Assembly: GCF_013315695.1 (NCBI RefSeq)
Contig: NZ_CP054353.1
Strand: one strand, 5' to 3'
Source of the DNA: Escherichia coli
Lineage (GTDB): Bacteria; Pseudomonadota; Gammaproteobacteria; Enterobacterales; Enterobacteriaceae
Length of the DNA stretch: 64,000 nucleotides
Positions 7,758 to 58,065 of this stretch are shown here, one piece after another. Made by a program: the position numbers and the translations under genes. The notes beneath the pieces are model-generated. The model had not been told where the DNA came from. It saw only the letters and a program-made list of their open reading frames with translations, and searched no databases. Position 1 is the first letter of the stretch; every line of letters begins with the position of its first letter.

Positions 7758-9215
7758 CTTCACGGAATATTTCGCCACGGTCGCTTTCGCACCATGCGCT
7801 AATAAAGACAAGTACGCTTCCGTCACTTTTGCAGTAAACAAGCTATTGTCTGGCAAATCATCACCAAAGATCGCCTTAATCGCCAGCAATGACTGGACGC
7901 GCGCTTTCCCTTCGGCACTACTTTGTACAGCCTTCTGAATAACAGGTAACAGTGGGTCACTGATTTCTATCGGATTTCCCTGTTCATCAACACCACCGAC
8001 ATAACGCATCCAACCTGCGACGCCCAGCGCCAGCAGATCGAACTTGCTGTCATGCGCCAGATGCCAGCGAACAGAATCCAACATCCGCTGTGGCAATTTC
8101 TGGCTGCCATCCATAGCAATCTGCCAGGTTCGATGACGTAGCGCCGGGTTGCTATAGCGTTCAATTAATCGGTTAGCGTAATCTTGCAAATCAACGCCCT
8201 GCACTTTCAACGTCGGCGCTTGTTCCTGCAACATCAAGGCATACGCTGCATGACGATAATGTTCATCTTCCATGCAGTCATTAATGTGCTGATATCCGGC
8301 AAGATAACCCAGATACGCCAGGAATGAATGACTGCCGTTGAGCATGCGCAACTTCATCTCTTCATAAGGCAGCACATCACTAACCAGTTCGGCTCCCGCT
8401 TTTTCCCATTCCGGACGTCCGGCAACAAAGTTATCTTCTATTACCCACTGGCGGAAAGGTTCACAGGCAACGCCAGCAGGATCGCGCACACCGGTAAGTT
8501 GTTCGATTTTCGTCAGCATATCCTCTGTCACTGCGGGCACAATACGGTCCACCATTGTTGATGGGAAAGTCACGTTTTCTTCGATCCATTGTGCCAGTTT
8601 TACATCAACAGCTTGCGCGTAGGAAGTGACAACGTCACGCATAACATGACCGTTTTCTGGCATGTTGTCACATGACATGACGGTAAATGCGGGAAGTCCT
8701 GCCGCTTTACGGCGAGCCAGCGCCTCGACAATCACCCCTGTTGCAGTTTTCGGCTGGTGGGGATTTTGAACGTCGGCAACGACCATCGGGTGATCGAGCA
8801 TTAACTGTCCGGTCGCCGGAGAGTGGAAATACCCTTTTTCGGTGATTGTCAGAGAGACAATCGCGATTTGCGGTTCACACATCGCAGCCAACACGGTTTC
8901 TAAGCCATCAATCTGTACGTGCAAGGCTTTTTTAACGACGCCAACGACGCGAGCCGTCCACGCATCGGCCGACATTTCCGCAACGGTATAAAGATTATCT
9001 TGCTGTTGTAAATCGGCAATTTGCTGTTCGCCGCCGATTAAATTGACCTCATAATATCCCCAGTCACTGAAATGTTTTGTAGCAAGAATATCGGCATACA
9101 CGCCCTGATGCGCACGGTGAAATGCACCAAAGCCTAAATGAACAATTCTTGGGGCCAGGTTATTACGATCATAAACAGGGAGCGTCGCTTTTGCTGATAA
9201 CAAATTATTTCCCAT
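7755..9215 (-). CDS. ydfI: mannitol/fructuronate dehydrogenase-family oxidoreductase
   Basis: 486-aa ORF, long-chain mannitol dehydrogenase family by sequence character; synteny. Confidence 0.8.
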
Positions 9216-14040: not shown

Positions 14041-14246
14041 TAGATTGACTCCCCCATCTGAGCATCAGTCAATGCCTTGTGCCAAATACGCAGATTTCGA
14101 ACGTGTCCAAATAGGTGACGGTTGCCGGATGATGATTGACCACCAATATTAATGAAGCCTCCTGTATATTTGTGTTTTTTATAAGGAGAAAGGTGATGCT
14201 GCCAACTTACTGATTTAGTGTATGATGGTGTTTTTGAGGTGCTCCA

Positions 14247-14522
14247 GTGGCTTCTGTTTCTATCAGCTGTCCCTCCTGTTCAGCTACTGACGGGGTGGTG
14301 CGTAACGGCAAAAGCACCGCCGGACATCAGCGCTATCTCTGCTCTCACTGCCGTAAAACATGGCAACTGCAGTTCACTTACACCGCTTCTCAACCCGGTA
14401 CGCACCAGAAAATCATTGATATGGCCATGAATGGCGTTGGATGCCGGGCAACAGCCCGCATTATGGGCGTTGGCCTCAACACGATTTTACGTCACTTAAA
14501 AAACTCAGGCCGCAGTCGGTAA
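14247..14522 (+). CDS. insA: IS1 InsA
   Basis: 91-aa [26 protein letters not shown]... (zinc-finger InsA). Confidence 0.9.
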
Positions 14523-14944
14523 CCTCGCGCATACAGCCGGGCAGTGACGTCATCGTCTGCGCGGAAATGGACGAACAGTGGGGCTATGTCGGGGCTAAAT
14601 CGCGCCAGCGCTGGCTGTTTTACGCGTATGACAGGCTCCGGAAGACGGTTGTTGCGCACGTATTCGGTGAACGCACTATGGCGACGCTGGGGCGTCTTAT
14701 GAGCCTGCTGTCACCCTTTGACGTGGTGATATGGATGACGGATGGCTGGCCGCTGTATGAATCCCGCCTGAAGGGAAAGCTGCACGTAATCAGCAAGCGA
14801 TATACGCAGCGAATTGAGCGGCATAACCTGAATCTGAGGCAGCACCTGGCACGGCTGGGACGGAAGTCGCTGTCGTTCTCAAAATCGGTGGAGCTGCATG
14901 ACAAAGTCATCGGGCATTATCTGAACATAAAACACTATCAATAA
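14441..14944 (+). CDS. insB: IS1 InsB
   Basis: 167-aa ORF overlapping insA in the -1 frame, typical IS1 arrangement. Confidence 0.9.
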
Positions 14945-14954
14945 GTTGGAGTCA

Positions 14955-17228
14955 TTACCAAGGAGAAACTACCTTAGCACCAATATTACCGTTAACCACA
15001 ACACACAATTCTCGACTTTCTGTGAATCTAAAGCCGATAATGCTTTTTCTCTCTGGTCGTTCTATAACGCTTTTATATTCTATTTTAGTGCCTTTACCAT
15101 TTGTAATGATTGCGCGTGCTCCCAAAGATGTATACCCCAAATACATATAACTTTCATCTGCAATTTCAGTTGTATCTCCCGTAGTGGAAATATTAAGAAT
15201 ACGTGCGCTACCTTCTTTGTTTGGCGATTCATCCCAATTGGTATTAACTTCTGCTAATGAACTAATAGCGGGATTGCACCAATTTAGAGAAATGGGGACC
15301 GTTACAATATCGCTGGCGCGTGTTACAGGGGATGCGCCTGTTATAATAAACGATGAAGCGCATGCCCCACCTTCAACTTGAGGGGTCGCAATATAAATAT
15401 AATCATCCGCGCCAGTGCCCACTCCTTTTGCCGGGGCATACTGAACCATTCCACCTATCATATTTTCTGTATCAAGTGCCTTAATTGTCGCCTCAAAAAA
15501 GATCCATTTGCTTGCTTCATCTTTAACAGCCCTTGCAGTAATGCGATTAGCGGCACCACCCGTCTTATCAATAGATAAATCTGTCGTATTTAAGTAAGCG
15601 TCACCTAAGAATGTGTAGGTAGAACCATCATAGTTTTCAAATCGTAATCGGCATCTTAAATTTGGAGTGCCACTTTGCACCCTGCATGATATGGTTACAT
15701 ACTTTTCTCCGCCTGTTACATCAAAACCTTTACTGCCGGAAACGGTTACTATGTTAATCGCTGAAATTTGCCCTACCATTTCTGGTTTTAATGTAAATTT
15801 TGCGTACTGGAATCCGAAATCATCTACACCTGATGCACTTAAGATCATATTTGACGACTTGTTCCATTTAGTCGGATTTGTTGAATTGATTAGCAGGTTA
15901 GTTCTTTGCCCCTCAATAAGCAGGCCATCACGTTCAAATCGTGGCTCGTCAATGGCAGCCTCTGTCAGCACACCAGATTTATTAATGTAAGTTGCTTTCG
16001 ATGCGCGTTTAAACTTTACAATCTTGTCGCCAGGCATTGTTATTTCATCGTCGCCAATAACAATTTTTTTATATGATGGCGAAAAGCCCGTAATCATATC
16101 CAGTGAATCATTAAACGGTATCCACACATCGGGCAACGGCTGCAAAACTTGTTTATACGGCTCCGCTGCCTGGCTTGCATACTCTCTGGCTGCGTCTTCA
16201 CTTGCTTTAGCTGCTGTCTGGCTTGCTGCCGATGCTTGCGCCGAGTTCGCCGCCGCAGTCTCGCTCGCCTTTGCGTTGGTTTCACTGGTTTTTGCTGCTT
16301 TTTGACTGTTAGCTGATGCAGTGGCAGAAGCAGCCGCCGCGCTTGCAGAACTGGCTGCGGCACTCTCGCTTTGGGCCGCTGCATCCTGACTGCTTTTCGC
16401 CGCAGTTTCACTGGCTTTGGCATTCGTTTCGCTGGTCTTCGCTGCCGTCTGGCTGGACTTTGCGTTAGTTTCACTCGTCTTCGCAGCTTTCTGGCTGTTA
16501 GCCGCAGCAGTTGCTGATCCAGCTGCTGAAGTCGCAGAACCGGCTGCCGCGCTCTCGCTTTGGGCTGCTGCAACCTGGCTGTTTTTTGCCGCAGTTTCAC
16601 TGGCTTTGGCATTCGTTTCGCTGGTTTTCGCTGCCGTCTGGCTGGACTTTGCGTTGGTTTCGCTCGTCTTTGCGGCTGTCTCGCTATTTTTCGCGTTGGT
16701 TTCTGATTTTTTGGCTGCTGTCGCGGAGTTTGCCGATGCAGTCTTTGAGGTCGCTGCCGCCTGTGCACTATTAGCTGCATTCGTTTCTGAGGTTTTCGCC
16801 GCGTTCTTCGATGATGCCGCTGCAGTTTCGGATTTCTTTGCCGCCGCTGCGCTCTGAGAGGCGGCTTCAGCGTTGCGTGCCGCTTCTTCCACCATTTCCT
16901 CAAAACGACGCAATGCCTCCGGCATGACATCATCTTCCGTCATGGCACCGAGAAAATCATTCAGCGTACCTGGTCTGGAACCTTCATAGACGGTAATGGT
17001 TCCGGCATGTGAAGGCGGAAAACCTTCAACCAGCAGGGTGACGCTGTACTGGCCATACTCAACATCCATGCTGTAACGCCCGGCTTCATCCGGATTTTCA
17101 GAGGCCACTGTGTTGACCAGTACCGTGGTGCTGTTACGCTTTGCCTTCAGTTGAATAGTGCAGTTCTGTATTGGTTTTCCCGCACCATCTTTCAGCACAC
17201 CTGAGATTTTTACTGCTGCCATATCCAC
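14955..17228 (-). CDS. stf: side tail fibre protein Stf, C-terminus replaced by IS1 read-through
   Basis: N-terminus MAAVKISGVLKDGAGKPIQNCTIQLKA... matches lambda Stf as remembered; Ala/Ser/Thr-rich repeat shaft; stop codon lies inside the IS1 end. Confidence 0.8.
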   Translation of the reverse strand: MDMAAVKISGVLKDGAGKPIQNCTIQLKAKRNSTTVLVNTVASENPDEAGRYSMDVEYGQYSVTLLVEGFPPSHAGTITVYEGSRPGTLNDFLGAMTEDDVMPEALRRFEEMVEEAARNAEAASQSAAAAKKSETAAASSKNAAKTSETNAANSAQAAATSKTASANSATAAKKSETNAKNSETAAKTSETNAKSSQTAAKTSETNAKASETAAKNSQVAAAQSESAAAGSATSAAGSATAAANSQKAAKTSETNAKSSQTAAKTSETNAKASETAAKSSQDAAAQSESAAASSASAAAASATASANSQKAAKTSETNAKASETAAANSAQASAASQTAAKASEDAAREYASQAAEPYKQVLQPLPDVWIPFNDSLDMITGFSPSYKKIVIGDDEITMPGDKIVKFKRASKATYINKSGVLTEAAIDEPRFERDGLLIEGQRTNLLINSTNPTKWNKSSNMILSASGVDDFGFQYAKFTLKPEMVGQISAINIVTVSGSKGFDVTGGEKYVTISCRVQSGTPNLRCRLRFENYDGSTYTFLGDAYLNTTDLSIDKTGGAANRITARAVKDEASKWIFFEATIKALDTENMIGGMVQYAPAKGVGTGADDYIYIATPQVEGGACASSFIITGASPVTRASDIVTVPISLNWCNPAISSLAEVNTNWDESPNKEGSARILNISTTGDTTEIADESYMYLGYTSLGARAIITNGKGTKIEYKSVIERPERKSIIGFRFTESRELCVVVNGNIGAKVVSPW

Positions 17229-17953: not shown

Positions 17954-18793
17954 TCAGCTGATACTGATGCCTGCGGTGGCTTTCTTCATCACCACAACCA
18001 GCAGATCGCTGATACTTGCTGTGGGATACCAGTCATTTACCAGCCATGCTGACACCGAAAACTCCAGCGTCATGTGACCGTGACCGGCAGGCATATCAAT
18101 AACGCCACTGTAAATCAGCGTATTATCCAGCGCGGTACGGTTATAAATTTCAGCACCGTTTTTCCGCACTATCAGACGGCATGAGGAGTAAATATCAGTA
18201 TGCTCTCTCTCATGTTTAGCGCCGCTGAATGCCACCGCCGGAATAACAATCTGCCGGTCAAACGGCTGATCGTCATAAACCCTGACGGTAATGGTCCCTG
18301 ATGGCCACCGTTCCGGTGCACGGGAGTCCCGGGGGAAAGCTTTGCCCACTGTTTTAACGAGATCGCCTTCAATCTGGTTCGCGGACAGTTTTCCCAGAAC
18401 CCGACAGTTCTCGTTAATCGTGACGTTGTTGAGCGTCCCGGAGTTCGCATTCACGTTACCACTGATATCCGCATTTTTAGCAGTCAGCTTTCCGTCCGGT
18501 GTCAGGGAAAATGCCGGTGGATTTCCACCACTGGTAATGGTGGGGGCCGTCAGGCGCTTCAGGAACACGTCGTTCATGAATATCTGGTTGCCCTGCGCCA
18601 CAAACATCGGCGTTTCATTCCCGTTTGCCGGGTCAATAAACGCGATACGATTGGCGGCAACCAGAAACTGACTCAGTTTGCCTTCCTCTGTATCCTCCAT
18701 GCTGAGGCCAATACCCGCGACATAATGTTTGCCGTCTTTGGTCTGCTCAATTTTGACAGCCCACATGGCATTCCATTTATCGTTGGCATCCTT
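17954..18793 (-). pseudogene. tail tip/host-specificity protein J, C-terminal about 280 codons only
   Basis: reads ...[40 protein letters not shown]...[12 protein letters not shown], lambda-J-like C-terminus; upstream part replaced by IS end at 18794. Confidence 0.8.
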
Positions 18794-18801
18794 TGTAGTG
18801 G

Positions 18802-21704
<2,903 letters not shown>

Positions 21705-21723
<19 letters not shown>

Positions 21724-22142: not shown

Positions 22143-22883
22143 TTAACTGGCGGTGACGGTGATTTCTGCAACCGCAGCAAACTCACCATTACCGGATACA
22201 ACCGGAATGTTGACCTTGCCTGCAGCAACGCCGTTCACGGTGATGGTCATACCACTGACCGACACGGTGGCTTTTGTTTTATCCGCTGACACCGCACGGA
22301 AGCTCTTGTCGGTTGCGCCTTCCGGCTGGAAGGCCACGGTCAGCGTGGTGCTCTGCCCTTTCACTACGGAAGCACTGGCTGGCGTTACCGTCATGCCGGT
22401 GGCCGCTGTTACCGTGCTGCGATCTTCTGCCATCGACGGGCGTCCCACATTGGTGACCTTCACCGTGCGGGTGATCACTTCCTTCGCCGTCACCGCTTTA
22501 CCGATACTGCTGACCCAGCCACGGAACACATCGACCGTGCCGTTCGGGAAGCGGATTTTATAGGCACGGGTATCACCTTCATTAAACCACGCCAGCAGCG
22601 CCTGCTGCCCCTGCTCTCCGGGCATCCACGCCAGCGTGAAGCTGGTATCTCCGGCTGATTTCTGCCCCTGCCCGGTCGCAGTCCAGTCCGCATCCTCATC
22701 ATCGAGATAACTGTCGTCATAGGACTCAGCGGTCAGTTCGCCGGGCGTCAGGTCTTTAACTTTTGCCAGACGCGACCAGTCAACGTCTGAAAGCGGGTTC
22801 GCATAAGGGTCACCGCTCCCCTTATAAACCCACAGGGTGGTCCCGGCACCTTTCACCGGCATTACAGGATTTGGTACAGGCAT
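22143..22883 (-). CDS. V: major tail protein V
   Basis: 246 aa from [36 protein letters not shown]... Confidence 0.9.
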
Positions 22884-22890
22884 AGCGTCC

Positions 22891-23286: not shown

Positions 23287-23861
23287 CGCTTTATTACCAT
23301 TCTCAGTTGATGCTGCAGCGCATAGCCCAGCTCTTTCGGAAGACGCTCACGCCGTATCCGTTCAATATTCTGTTTAAACGCCGTGGTCAGTGGCACCGCC
23401 ATCGGGATTTTCACCACATCAATGGGGTAACGGTTTTTCCCGGCCACACGCTGCATGACATGCCACCGGCCATTTTTCAGTTGCTGAATAAACGCGCCGG
23501 GAATACGACGGTTTCCCACCACAAGCACGCTGCCGCCACCTTTCAGGGATGAACGCTGCCCCTTTTTACGACGCCTGCGTCGGGACAGGACAACCCGCGC
23601 ATTACCCAGCTTGATTACGGGCAAATCCCCCCGGTTAACCTTGATTCTGGCCTGCGGATTTTTAACCGTGGCCCTTTTCAGCCTGGCCCTTTCCTTTACC
23701 AGTTTCCGGCGTACCTTTGTCTCACGGGCAACCTGTGACGCCGACTGCGATATCGCGGATGAAGCAACGCGGTTAATGGCCATTGCGGCGGCACCAGGCA
23801 CCGCCGTTTTGCTGATACGGCTGAGGTTTTCAACGGCCTGCTCAAGACCCTGTATGGCCAT
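23283..23861 (-). CDS. Z: tail completion protein Z
   Basis: 192 aa from MAIQGLEQAVENLSRISKTAVPGAAAMAINR... Confidence 0.85.
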   Translation of the reverse strand: MAIQGLEQAVENLSRISKTAVPGAAAMAINRVASSAISQSASQVARETKVRRKLVKERARLKRATVKNPQARIKVNRGDLPVIKLGNARVVLSRRRRRKKGQRSSLKGGGSVLVVGNRRIPGAFIQQLKNGRWHVMQRVAGKNRYPIDVVKIPMAVPLTTAFKQNIERIRRERLPKELGYALQHQLRMVIKR

Positions 23862-23917
23862 ACATCCCCCTTTCAACGGCCTGCTCAAGACCTTTTATGG
23901 CCATACATCCCCCTTTC
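23832..23917. repeat. 43-bp tandem duplication (2 copies, 2 mismatches) spanning the RBS, start codon and first 10 codons of Z
   Basis: AACGGCCTGCTCAAGACCCTGTATGGCCATACATCCCCCTTTC then AACGGCCTGCTCAAGACCTTTTATGGCCATACATCCCCCTTTC. Confidence 0.8.
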
Positions 23918-24269
23918 AGCGGCGACGGTTAACGGCAGGCGGAACGCCACGCCCAAGCCAGAGATGACAGCTTCCGCCATCATCCGGCGATACCCGGTCT
24001 ATCCAGAAGTTTTCCTCACCGATGGTCAGCGTGTCTCCACGCCGCAGCTGCCGCACCTCATCAGTCCGGACAAACAGGGACGGGCTGGAGCCTTCAACGC
24101 GCACGCCCTGTCCGGCATAGCTGATATTTTCAGGGTCATCAAAAACACCACGTATTACTGCGCCGGACTGCTCACCGGATGTCATGGTGGCTGACGTTCC
24201 CATGTACCCGCGTATCGTTTCATCGGCGCGGGCAATGGCAGCATCGAACAGGTTATCGAAATCAGCCAC
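23916..24269 (-). CDS. FII: head-tail joining protein FII
   Basis: 117 aa; MADFDNLFDAAIARADETIRGYMGTSA... Confidence 0.9.
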   Translation of the reverse strand: MADFDNLFDAAIARADETIRGYMGTSATMTSGEQSGAVIRGVFDDPENISYAGQGVRVEGSSPSLFVRTDEVRQLRRGDTLTIGEENFWIDRVSPDDGGSCHLWLGRGVPPAVNRRR

Positions 24270-46289: not shown

Positions 46290-47309
46290 TTATCCTCTGA
46301 AACCAGGCGGAATTTCTGTATCCGGTTCAGAAATATGATTAACACAACGCTGTACAGGTGAACGTCCCAGGCGGATGACCAGTTCGTCCCATTTTTCGCG
46401 GAGCTTTGACGGGCTCATGATGTTTTTTACCCAGAATGGATCTCGCTGAACCCGACCAAACATTTCGCAAATTTGTCTGTGGCTTCTGCCATCCAGCATC
46501 CGCATTGTGCGCACGTCATTGGCCCAGGCAGTCCAGTTAGGCTCTTTTGGTCGCATGATCTCGCCATCATCACTGGCTGCCTGTTCGTAGAGACCCACGA
46601 TCCGCCCCCAGATCCACTGCGCACACGCCAAATCCTCCCTGCTACCCCACTGGCGTTTTTTCGCACTAAACACAACCGCGTCGGAGTTCCGGGTTAAAAA
46701 ATCCTGTTCAGTCGTCTGCGGGTCCGGTTGCGAAGCTTCCGGACGAAAAGTGTTTTTATTCTCTGTAGTAATCTCTGTTGTATTCTCTGTAAGATCATCA
46801 GGCCATTTTGACCCGATGACATTGGGTCGTTTTGAACCAATGGAGCGTTTCATTTTGACCTCTTCCATCGTGTCATTTTGACCTGATGGAGCGGCGCATT
46901 TTGAACCGATGGATTCGCTCAATTTGCCACCATCTAAAAGCTCGCTCCCATAGTTGATCGTGTAGAAATTGGTCATATCGCGCTTTGATTTATTGAGCTT
47001 TTCACAACGCAAAAGCCCCAGCGTTTTCAGACTTGCAAACGCGCGCTTTAACGTTGACTCTGACCAGAATGGGAACTGTTCCAGCCATTGTTCCGTTGTG
47101 TTATAAATCCAGCGAACACCATCACATTCCATGCCGGAGTTGGTATCTCTCAACCAGTAGTGCAGTTGTTGCAAAACAATGGCTTCGTTTAAGCCAATTT
47201 TCATTGCCAGCTGCGTGTTTATAACCAGTGGGCGTTCAGCAAAAAGAAGGCTCATAATTCCATCCAGCTTTTTGTTGGTATTGCTGTCGATACGCAAGTT
47301 TGAAAGCAA
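46290..47309 (-). CDS. replication initiation (O-like/replisome organizer) protein
   Basis: 339 aa; position immediately downstream of the cro-like/cII-position genes; acidic low-complexity linker; start uncertain (overlaps upstream ORF). Confidence 0.5.
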   Translation of the reverse strand: MLSNLRIDSNTNKKLDGIMSLLFAERPLVINTQLAMKIGLNEAIVLQQLHYWLRDTNSGMECDGVRWIYNTTEQWLEQFPFWSESTLKRAFASLKTLGLLRCEKLNKSKRDMTNFYTINYGSELLDGGKLSESIGSKCAAPSGQNDTMEEVKMKRSIGSKRPNVIGSKWPDDLTENTTEITTENKNTFRPEASQPDPQTTEQDFLTRNSDAVVFSAKKRQWGSREDLACAQWIWGRIVGLYEQAASDDGEIMRPKEPNWTAWANDVRTMRMLDGRSHRQICEMFGRVQRDPFWVKNIMSPSKLREKWDELVIRLGRSPVQRCVNHISEPDTEIPPGFRG

Positions 47310-56849: not shown

Positions 56850-57860
56850 TTACCAGTTCCACAGCGTGCCATCTTCCAGACGTGCGACTGGCAGATAAGC
56901 AGGTTCATAGGGATATTTCGCCGCCAGCTTTTCATCGAATTCGATGCCAAGACCCGGTTTGTCTCCCGGATGCATATAGCCGTTATCAAAAGTCCAGTTG
57001 TGCGGGAAGACTTCAAGCATTTGTTCGGAATAACCCATGTATTCCTGGACACCGAAATTGGGGACCCACAGATCAAAGTGCAGCGCCGCAGCCATGCAGA
57101 CTGGCGACAAATCGGAAGGACCGTGTGAGCCAGTACGTACCTGATACAGCGAAGCAAAATCGGCAATCCGGCGCATACCGGTAATCCCCCCCGCGTGAGT
57201 CAGCGTGGTGCGGATATAGTCGATAAGTTGTTCTTCAATCAGCTGTTTGCAGTCCCAGATGCTGTTGAAGACTTCACCCACTGCAATTGGCGTGACGGTG
57301 TGTTGGCGAATCAGGCGGAAACACTCCTGGTTTTCCGCAGGCGTCGGGTCTTCCATCCAGAACATGCGATAATCTTCAATGCTTTTACCAAAGCGCGCCG
57401 CTTCAATAGGCGTTAAGCGATGGTGCATGTCATGCAGCAAATGTTCATTAAAACCAAACTTGTTACGTACCGCGTCAAACAATTTCGGCATGAAATCGAG
57501 GTATTTCTCCGTCGACCACAGCTGCTCTTCCGGCCACTGTCCTTTGGTTGCGGGTTCATAAGCCAGACCTTTACCTTTCGACATGCCATAGGTGGTTTTC
57601 ATACCAGGGATTCCGCACTGCACGCGGATGGCTTTGAATCCCAGCTCCTGATGACGGGCATAATCATCCAGAGCTTCATCAATACTGTGACCGGTGAGCT
57701 GCGGACAAAGGTGATCCTGCAAATAAGAGGCCACGGAAAGCTCACGTCCATTTAGGGTGGCATCCCCAAGGCCCGTAATACCGTCCTCAGTGGTGATTTT
57801 TAATGTGACGAAATTACGCCCCGGACAGGTAACAAAAACTTCAGCCTTTACGATCTTCAT
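56850..57860 (-). CDS. rspA: starvation-sensing protein RspA (enolase-superfamily dehydratase), apparently shortened by an internal in-frame deletion
   Basis: 336 aa from [17 protein letters not shown]...; N-terminal capping domain only about 55 aa before the barrel region (...LCPQL|[26 protein letters not shown]...). Confidence 0.8.
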
Positions 57861-58065
57861 GTTCGATTCCTTGCATCGCTTGTCGTGATGCATGAAATCT
57901 ACGCAACTGAGCTACTACCATACAAGTATGAAGATCAAAAAAAGCCGGAGTGATCACAAAAAAAGGCGTATATTTGCGCCGTGAATGGTTGACAAAAGAT
58001 GAAATAGAATACCTTTTGTCAGCTGACACTTCCTCGTATCTTATTGATAAAGTGGATTTATGTTC

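Follow-up and report, generated by a model that had tools for sequence, protein, structure and literature searches.

The FII-Z junction of the lambdoid prophage analysed here carries a 43-bp tandem duplication of the region in which translation of Z begins, and our overall reading, which we consider probable, is that it is a rare, heritable, microhomology-bounded allele of single origin that leaves Z intact and is close to neutral, and not a regulator that has been selected. The allele would be near-neutral because it is rare and arose once, although a weak selective effect is still compatible with both. Throughout, "the window" is the whole stretch of Escherichia coli DNA that was analysed, 64,000 nucleotides in length; positions are those of the window, and the genes discussed lie on its minus strand, so that their coordinates are read downwards. 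An odd repeat in a well-known phage operon is thereby identified as a genuine inherited polymorphism, which is mostly of housekeeping value and of low general interest.

The repeat and its reading frames

A repeat search of the window found two abutting 43-nt copies, identical at 41 of their 43 positions (Table 1). Tandem Repeats Finder reported the interval 23828-23923 (period 43, 2.2 copies, score 171), which consists of two full head-to-tail copies of the lambda FII-Z junction and a 10-nt partial third copy. The expectation of finding 41/43 identity between adjacent units by chance anywhere in the window is about 3e-15. The initial annotation had described a 43-bp tandem duplication of the Z initiation region at 23832-23917; it is present, and those positions denote the same unit shifted by 4 nt. 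In the minus-strand reading each copy is GAAAGGGGGATGTATGGCCATA, comprising a ribosome-binding site, an ATG and Z codons 1-11, and no spacer separates the copies, the distance from start to start being 43 nt for a unit of 43 nt. On the coding strand, the end of FII runs into copy 1 as CGC CGC TGA AAGGGGGATGT ATG GCC ATA AAA GGT CTT GAG CAG GCC GTT GAA A, followed by copy 2 as GGGGGATGT ATG GCC ATA CAG GGT CTT GAG CAG GCC GTT GAA AAC. Both mismatches between the copies fall in codon 4 of Z, which is AAA (K) in copy 1 and CAG (Q) in copy 2. The sequence diagnostic of the duplication is the junction between the copies, GAGCAGGCCGTTGAAAGGGGGATG.

Table 1. Positions of the repeat, its parts and the neighbouring genes in the window
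Feature	Position	Strand	Evidence or remark
E	25770-24718	-	ORF
FI	24715-24281	-	ORF; expected Pfam family
FII, head-tail joining protein, 117 aa	23916..24269	-	ORF; collinear annotations; PF05354 on the homologous gene
Boundary direct repeat 1, GCCGCTGAAA	23914..23923	-	last FII codons and stop
Copy 1 ribosome-binding site, AAGGGGG	23915-23909	-	ATG at 23904-23902
Copy 1, FII-proximal	23871..23913	-	K allele AAA at 23895-23893; identical to the native lambda junction
Predicted helix, 5' arm, UGUAUGGCCAUA	23896..23907	-	includes the decoy AUG; inverted repeat; MFE and centroid folds
Upstream "decoy" ORF, 20 codons and stop, MAIKGLEQAVERGMYGHTGS	23842..23904	-	ORF from the ATG at 23904-23902
Boundary direct repeat 2, GCCGTTGAAA	23871..23880	-	novel junction between the copies; served as diagnostic sequence
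Copy 2 ribosome-binding site	23872-23866	-	upstream of the real Z ATG
Copy 2	23828..23870	-	real Z ATG at 23861-23859; Q allele CAG at 23852-23850
Predicted helix, 3' arm, UAUGGCCAUACA	23851..23862	-	includes the Z AUG; inverted repeat; MFE and centroid folds
Z, tail completion protein, 192 aa	23283..23861	-	ORF; PF06763 Minor_tail_Z on the exact protein
Boundary repeat 3, GCCGTTGAAA	23837-23828	-	end of copy 2
U	23286-22891	-	ORF; expected Pfam family
V	ends at 22143	-	ORF; expected Pfam family

The order of the genes on the minus strand is E-FI-FII-Z-U-V, as in lambda, according to the ORFs, the collinear annotations and the Pfam families. FII ends with a TGA at 23918-23916, from which the upstream ATG is 11 nt away and the real Z ATG 54 nt away. 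The lambda arrangement, in which Z has one start at 11 nt from the FII stop, is absent, and the decoy ORF occupies that position. Judged by its sequence, the locus is a structural variant of the lambda-type FII-Z-U module and still a member of it.

Because the two starts are 43 nt apart, the frames of the decoy ORF and of Z differ by one nucleotide, and the decoy ORF terminates at a TGA (23844-23842) that occupies positions +18 to +20 of Z, that is, 17 nt inside the gene. Translation of the ORF from 23904 returned exactly the 20-residue out-of-frame peptide that the initial annotation had given for the FII-proximal copy. Its assignment of the real Z start to the second copy also stands: read from the second ATG, Z is identical to lambda gpZ at 191 of 192 residues, with K4Q as the sole difference, and it is annotated from there in every carrier record fetched, both by PGAP and by the depositors of phage PhiR49_1, leaving a 54-nt "intergenic" gap. 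For annotation, the second ATG is the correct start of Z, and a complete native start site is hidden in that gap.

The Z frame is also open upstream into copy 1, as a 201-aa ORF with a TTG start, and the decoy ORF, whose stop overlaps the Z frame by +1, contains a rare AGG codon and an AGGGGG motif. These features would be in keeping with a +1 frameshift of ribosomes from the upstream ATG, either at the rare AGG or at the UCU-UGA stop, that produces an N-terminally extended Z, an explanation that we hold to be exceedingly improbable. Programmed +1 frameshifting of the prfB type involves a slippery codon at the stop and a Shine-Dalgarno-like element about 3 nt upstream of it. At the end of the decoy ORF the sequence is GGG UCU UGA, where the P-site tRNA would find no slippery codon for re-pairing in the +1 frame, and the distance from AGGGGG to the stop is about 20 nt, against 3 nt in prfB. 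Scans of both strands of the junction region for promoters, terminators and Rfam families returned no match, the Rfam result being a further point against a frameshift element, and translation from the second ATG by itself gives lambda gpZ but for the one substitution. Both a frameshift fusion and a prfB-type programmed shift were rejected on these grounds.

Occurrence of the duplication and its prophages

In the phage collection, about 80 records besides lambda match the region as one copy with a shortfall of 43 nt, and only PhiR49_1 and PhiR49_1_star match the full 1001 nt in one piece. A 71-nt query spanning the novel junction was found at 100% identity in six records, corresponding to five distinct genomes, among 5,426 complete E. 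coli genomes; since the ordinary junction is present in 3,497 complete E. coli genomes, the duplication occurs in 5 of about 3,497. At least four more carrier assemblies were found by looking up the exact Z protein, which brings the other E. coli assemblies with the duplication to at least nine in all, and every carrier has the identical 86-bp repeat sequence. The carriers with complete genomes come from five countries and hold the allele in prophages at three chromosomal sites: ompT/envY in ST3 (Italy) and KK19-02 (Germany), prfC in CEA212U (France), and the Qin site, ydfJ/dcp, in AF3 (UK) and MSB1_4I (Australia). Exact junction scans of IMG/VR and of JGI metagenome contigs gave 0 matches, and the duplication is absent from all 80 of the 80 IMG/VR Z loci.

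Short tandem repeats are prone to mis-assembly, and the initial annotation had itself raised an assembly artefact, in which the repeat would have been falsely expanded in a genome that is truly single-copy; the window, moreover, has a C at 23919 that is found in no other carrier. Against this, the same junction occurs in at least nine independent assemblies and in one phage record, and the 86 bp are identical among assemblies from different laboratories and countries and among all three sites. The repeat is also linked to rare flanking SNPs, which is not expected from an artefact. An assembly or sequencing artefact is therefore excluded for practical purposes and effectively refuted, and the duplication is a genuine, rare, inherited polymorphism.

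On comparison with these genomes, the prophage in the window is a Qin-site lambdoid prophage of the AF3/MSB1_4I lineage. The ends of the window are the E. coli core genes ydeE/dcp and ynfE/ynfF, 100% identical to those of AF3 and MSB1_4I, and the window aligns collinearly with AF3 at 99.7-99.98% identity. As in AF3, the tail genes after T have been replaced by IS30 and IS3 sequences (the IS30 transposase lies at 19772-20923), and in the window the tail genes H through I are missing and J is reduced to a C-terminal piece. The window prophage is thus tail-defective through IS elements, and the expression of Z is there without consequence for phage production. Full sets of head and tail genes are present in the prophages of ST3, KK19-02 and CEA212U, and PhiR49_1 has a complete lambda-type gene set from int to stf. 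The GenBank entry for PhiR49_1 was deposited as a complete phage genome and names a propagation host; a literature search for a paper on the PhiR phages found none, and that entry is the evidence that a phage with the duplication is viable.

Origin of the two copies

The duplicated unit is bounded by direct repeats of the form GCCG(C/T)TGAAA. Lambda and the 53 classified full-length IMG/VR loci all have a direct repeat whose two elements, GCCGCTGAAA closing FII and GCCGTTGAAA at Z codons 9-11, lie 43 nt apart and match at 9 of 10 positions, and in the single-copy relatives on the carrier haplotype the repeat at the FII end is a perfect GCCGTTGAAA. Because the endpoints of the duplication lie inside these direct repeats, slipped-strand mispairing or unequal recombination at microhomology, acting between 10-nt repeats 43 nt apart, would have produced it.

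The two differences between the copies have a natural counterpart. Among single-copy loci, lambda has K at codon 4, as do 51 of the 53 classified full-length IMG/VR loci, while the other two and one partial locus have Q; Q is also present in about 230 complete E. coli genomes, as judged from partial junction matches. The natural alleles read AAAAGG (K) and ACAGGG (Q), and the duplication has the former in its upstream copy and the latter in its downstream copy. Drift of the copies after duplication was considered as the source of the two mismatches and rejected, the mismatches being the natural single-copy K and Q alleles. Simple intramolecular slippage could not have produced one K and one Q copy, which implies that recombination between two phage alleles was involved, presumably when the duplication formed or shortly after.

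All carriers share a rare haplotype around the repeat. Position 23943 is T in every carrier and in 0 of the 53 classified full-length single-copy IMG/VR loci, which have A or G, and A at 23991 is common to all carriers except MSB1_4I; more distant flanking sites vary among the carriers, and do so in blocks. Such a pattern is consistent with a duplicated allele that arose once and was then carried by homologous recombination between mosaic prophages, so as to reach at least three prophage backgrounds. An arrangement with clean parental flanks, K-type upstream and Q-type downstream, was rejected, as both flanks belong to the one rare haplotype.

The same haplotype also exists with one copy. When the carrier-specific FII end was used as the query, four single-copy genomes were recovered (from baboon, cattle and chicken, and an NCTC strain) that share the rare SNPs, all of them with the K allele, A2V in Z and a perfect GCCGTTGAAA at the FII end. 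Look-up of the exact Z protein added at least two single-copy Q loci on the carrier haplotype, L099 and L102, so that the haplotype occurs in three states: single-K, single-Q and duplicated. Between 23500 and 24300, L099 differs from the window at no variable site, apart from the missing unit and the boundary base. Further out it is mosaic, with 78 mismatches to the window in 3.6 kb, and the idea that L099 is a whole-lineage revertant of the window was rejected because the identity is limited to about 800 bp around the junction.

The single-K and single-Q forms would be the products expected from deletion of one unit from the K-Q duplication, the position of the crossover relative to codon 4 deciding which allele is left; alternatively, they could be the parents of an unequal crossover. 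For L099, reversion is favoured, since slippage from a single-Q locus would give Q-Q and none was observed. The 43-bp unit has therefore probably also been lost precisely, by a deletion that would return the locus to a single copy. At 23919, all 10 other carriers have T, and so a perfect GCCGTTGAAA, and the window alone has C; this is most simply a derived change, by mutation, micro-conversion or sequencing error, because the clonal relatives of the window have T.

The bounding repeats and the natural identity of the two mismatches, like the defective state of the window prophage, are points that the initial annotation had not described. For the study of phage evolution, the locus provides a natural example of a microhomology-bounded duplication and its probable reversion, with two alleles caught in the two copies, and of a small allele carried by recombination into different lambdoid prophages.

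Translation of Z and comparison with known systems

Two frameworks have been put forward for translational coupling, RNA unfolding and scanning/reinitiation, and in the latter the start nearest to the stop is the one used (PMC12548453). According to the summary in that paper, constructs of the phage fr used the start nearest the stop exclusively, and backward restarts over 38-50 nt occur in phages fr and MS2 (PMC12548453). In E. coli, reinitiation is nearly abolished at a spacing of about 20 nt (PMC10666635). Termination-reinitiation goes with stop and start codons that overlap or lie within about 10 nt of each other; the 11 nt that separate the FII stop from the upstream ATG fit this, and the 54 nt to the Z ATG do not. 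The real Z start retains the native sequence from -13 to +30 only. The proposal of the initial annotation, that the upstream start might reduce Z translation or couple it, is on this geometry a reasonable hypothesis, since the upstream copy keeps the lambda context and its 11-nt spacing and the real start has been displaced to 54 nt.

Copy 1 would then initiate as the native Z does, with whatever coupling native Z has to the termination of FII 11 nt before it, and the FII-coupled ribosomes would enter the short ORF, make the 20-residue peptide and stop 17 nt inside Z, transiently covering the Z ribosome-binding site. Z itself, an intact gene, would be read from the downstream copy by ribosomes that initiate independently at its own, duplicated ribosome-binding site, possibly with an additional share from ribosomes that finish the short ORF and reinitiate backwards.

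Folding predictions add a further element. The start region contains a self-complementary UAUGGCCAUA, and its duplication yields a predicted 12-bp helix in which 23907-23896 pairs with 23862-23851; it appears in both the MFE and the centroid folds of the duplicated mRNA and is absent from those of single-copy mRNAs. The bases of the Q allele lengthen the helix to 12 bp, and K in copy 2 would give 10 bp. The stability of the 151-nt fold is in no way exceptional (z = -0.44). In a partition-function calculation with 361 nt of context, opening the real Z ribosome-binding site is predicted to cost 14.4 kcal/mol, compared with 16.3-16.6 kcal/mol in single-copy mRNAs, and a modelled ribosome on the FII stop lowers the cost at the real start from 14.4 to 13.0 kcal/mol and at the upstream start from 18.0 to 6.0 kcal/mol, all of these being figures from a crude thermodynamic model. 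The idea that Z translation depends on the opening of this helix by ribosomes from FII or from the short ORF is weakened, as the Z site is predicted to be no harder to open than in the single-copy form.

A damaging effect has to be considered in this light. The duplication might be a lesion in which the decoy captures the FII-coupled ribosomes and blocks the Z start, so that Z is under-produced, the phage is crippled and the prophage has taken a step towards decay. The real start lies well beyond the roughly 20 nt at which termination-reinitiation is already nearly abolished (PMC10666635), the geometry would place short-ORF ribosomes over the Z ribosome-binding site, and three carriers, the window included, are defective prophages. 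We nevertheless consider such a lesion unlikely. The loss of tail genes at the Qin site is due to IS elements and not to the repeat, the prophages of the other three complete carriers have kept their head and tail sets, and the copied Z ribosome-binding site, unchanged from -13 to +30, is accessible according to the model. Furthermore, PhiR49_1 was deposited as a complete phage with full structural genes, and Z is listed as essential in lambda (PMC10695390), although the authors of that list caution on CRISPRi polarity; a complete phage genome with the duplication and an essential Z together mean that any reduction of Z cannot be crippling. On balance, the duplication most likely alters Z output only modestly and is tolerated, as far as sequence and modelling can indicate.

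At the opposite extreme, the main source of Z might be a three-step relay, from FII to the upstream ATG and from the end of the short ORF by backward reinitiation to Z, kept for tuning the dosage of Z or its dependence on FII. We regard this relay as distinctly unlikely; if it were true, the K-Q carriers and the single-K and single-Q forms would make a near-isogenic series for testing the scanning model of coupling against the RNA-unfolding model. In the more general form of a selected regulatory device, the short ORF would set Z dosage, or pass ribosomes from FII to Z, by way of the 12-bp helix. The upstream start sits exactly at the lambda restart position for ribosomes terminating on FII, the short ORF ends 17 nt into Z, within the range given for backward reinitiation in fr and MS2 (PMC12548453), the predicted helix joins both AUGs in the MFE and centroid folds, and the allele has persisted across several prophage backgrounds. 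Even so, we hold a selected device to be highly unlikely, because the allele is rare (5 of about 3,497 genomes, none of the 80 IMG/VR loci, and no exact match in either IMG/VR or the JGI metagenomes), arose once, appears to have been lost through reversion and is present in IS-wrecked prophages where Z is useless. The helix, too, is predicted to be no barrier to the Z site in the 361-nt context, where a ribosome on the FII stop shifts the cost only from 14.4 to 13.0 kcal/mol.

With the duplication read as a tolerated, near-neutral allele, it may still serve as a natural test case for the choice that ribosomes make between two starts after a stop codon, for which the forms of the haplotype and PhiR49_1 provide the material. 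The closest experimental parallel is found in the coat-lysis constructs of the RNA phages fr and MS2, which, as summarised in PMC12548453, likewise present two equivalent starts, one further from an upstream stop than the other, together with a short overlap between the terminating ORF and the next start. Those constructs were engineered and their expression was measured, whereas here the allele is natural, is known from sequence and has a strong ribosome-binding site at each start.

The short ORF also resembles bacterial upstream ORFs and leader peptides, in that it has its own start and ribosome-binding site and overlaps the downstream initiation region, a resemblance at the level of sequence only. 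Regulatory leader ORFs are conserved across relatives, whereas the decoy ORF is a rare allele of single origin, absent from lambda and from nearly all relatives, and neither conservation nor independent recurrence was found for it (5 of about 3,497 genomes, on one haplotype).

The initial annotation had pointed to the FII-Z junction of lambda as the reference, and there (NC_001416) one copy is present, with the FII stop at 7963-7965, the Z ATG at 7977, a gap of 11 nt and AAA (K) at codon 4. Copy 1 and the sequence upstream of it are almost base-for-base those of lambda, with the same AAGGGGG, the same 11-nt spacing and K. In the window, however, that native start opens just a 20-codon out-of-frame ORF, and Z itself starts in the second copy, 43 nt further downstream and 54 nt from the FII stop, with the Q allele.

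Most closely of all, the locus resembles the duplications and deletions that arise between direct repeats by slippage or unequal crossing-over: the copies are head-to-tail, a 10-nt repeat pre-existed at a distance of 43 nt, and single-copy forms on the carrier haplotype are consistent with precise loss of one unit. It is another case of this known type of event, and the mechanism is not new; what sets it apart is that the two copies here hold two different natural alleles, K and Q.

Tail module and tail-fibre region

The tail module of the window's Qin-site prophage is cut down. Gene T is the last tail gene before a stretch with a partial transposase, an IS30 transposase and IS3 fragments, beyond which only the C-terminal part of J is found; having lost H, M, L, K and I, the prophage is defective. 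The same structure is seen in AF3 and MSB1_4I, relatives with the same FII-Z duplication, except for an additional IS110 of approximately 1.4 kb in AF3. Immediately downstream of the tail-fibre ORF lies a 768-bp insertion, which begins with GGTGATGCTGCCAACTTACTGAT and, by its size, ends and ORF, we take to be IS1; it is not present in AF3 and MSB1_4I, the closest relatives. The tail-fibre ORF itself contains a tandem repeat with a 189-bp period, in which periods of 42 and 21 bp are nested, presumably representing a repeated segment of the fibre shaft.

Features of the window discussed in this section
Feature	Coordinates	Strand	Remarks
768-bp insertion	14192-14959		9-bp target duplication AAGGAGAAA at both sides
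ORF in insertion	14441-14944		167 aa
Tail-fibre ORF	14955-17228		757 aa
189-bp-period repeat	16251-16685		2.3 copies, 83% matches
J, C-terminal part	17954-18805		after IS stretch
Reduced tail module	18800-21240		
IS30 transposase	19772-20923		with partial transposase and IS3 fragments
Gene T	21289-21723		
Cluster of differences	22816-22885		U/V boundary
C at FII end	23919		
12-nt tandem repeat	46760-46791		
23-nt tandem repeat	46830-46913		3.7 copies
rspA ORF with deletion	56850-57893	minus	
204-bp deletion in rspA	~57696		

Variation around FII-Z and U/V

The end of FII reads CGC CGC TGA in the window, whose C is shared with single-copy phages outside the carrier haplotype (the rare flanking-SNP background of the duplication). 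In contrast, all ten other duplication carriers, near-identical relatives included, have a T (CGC CGT TGA), and the single-copy relatives with that haplotype share this base. The difference is synonymous, and the C could be explained by back-mutation, by micro-conversion from a co-resident prophage, or by a sequencing error. Four of these single-copy relatives, E. coli PapM-36-2, C41, GPEC1446 and NCTC9038 (loci L089-L092), carry GTC instead of GCC at codon 2 of Z (A2V; locus positions about 1296-1320), a change that disrupts the start-codon palindrome UAUGGCCAUA.

Over 3.6 kb, the window differs from its closest relatives there, the loci L095 and L096, at eight positions. Because six of them cluster within 70 nt at the U/V boundary, a short gene-conversion patch is suggested, with another lambdoid prophage as the donor.

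rspA and the replication gene

The gene for the starvation-sensing protein RspA lacks 204 bp that are present in AF3, where the product has 404 aa; the deletion is in frame, and no obvious direct repeat was found at its breakpoints. By collinearity with AF3, the 12-nt and 23-nt tandem repeats fall within the prophage replication gene O; this location makes it likely that they represent origin iterons like those of lambda.
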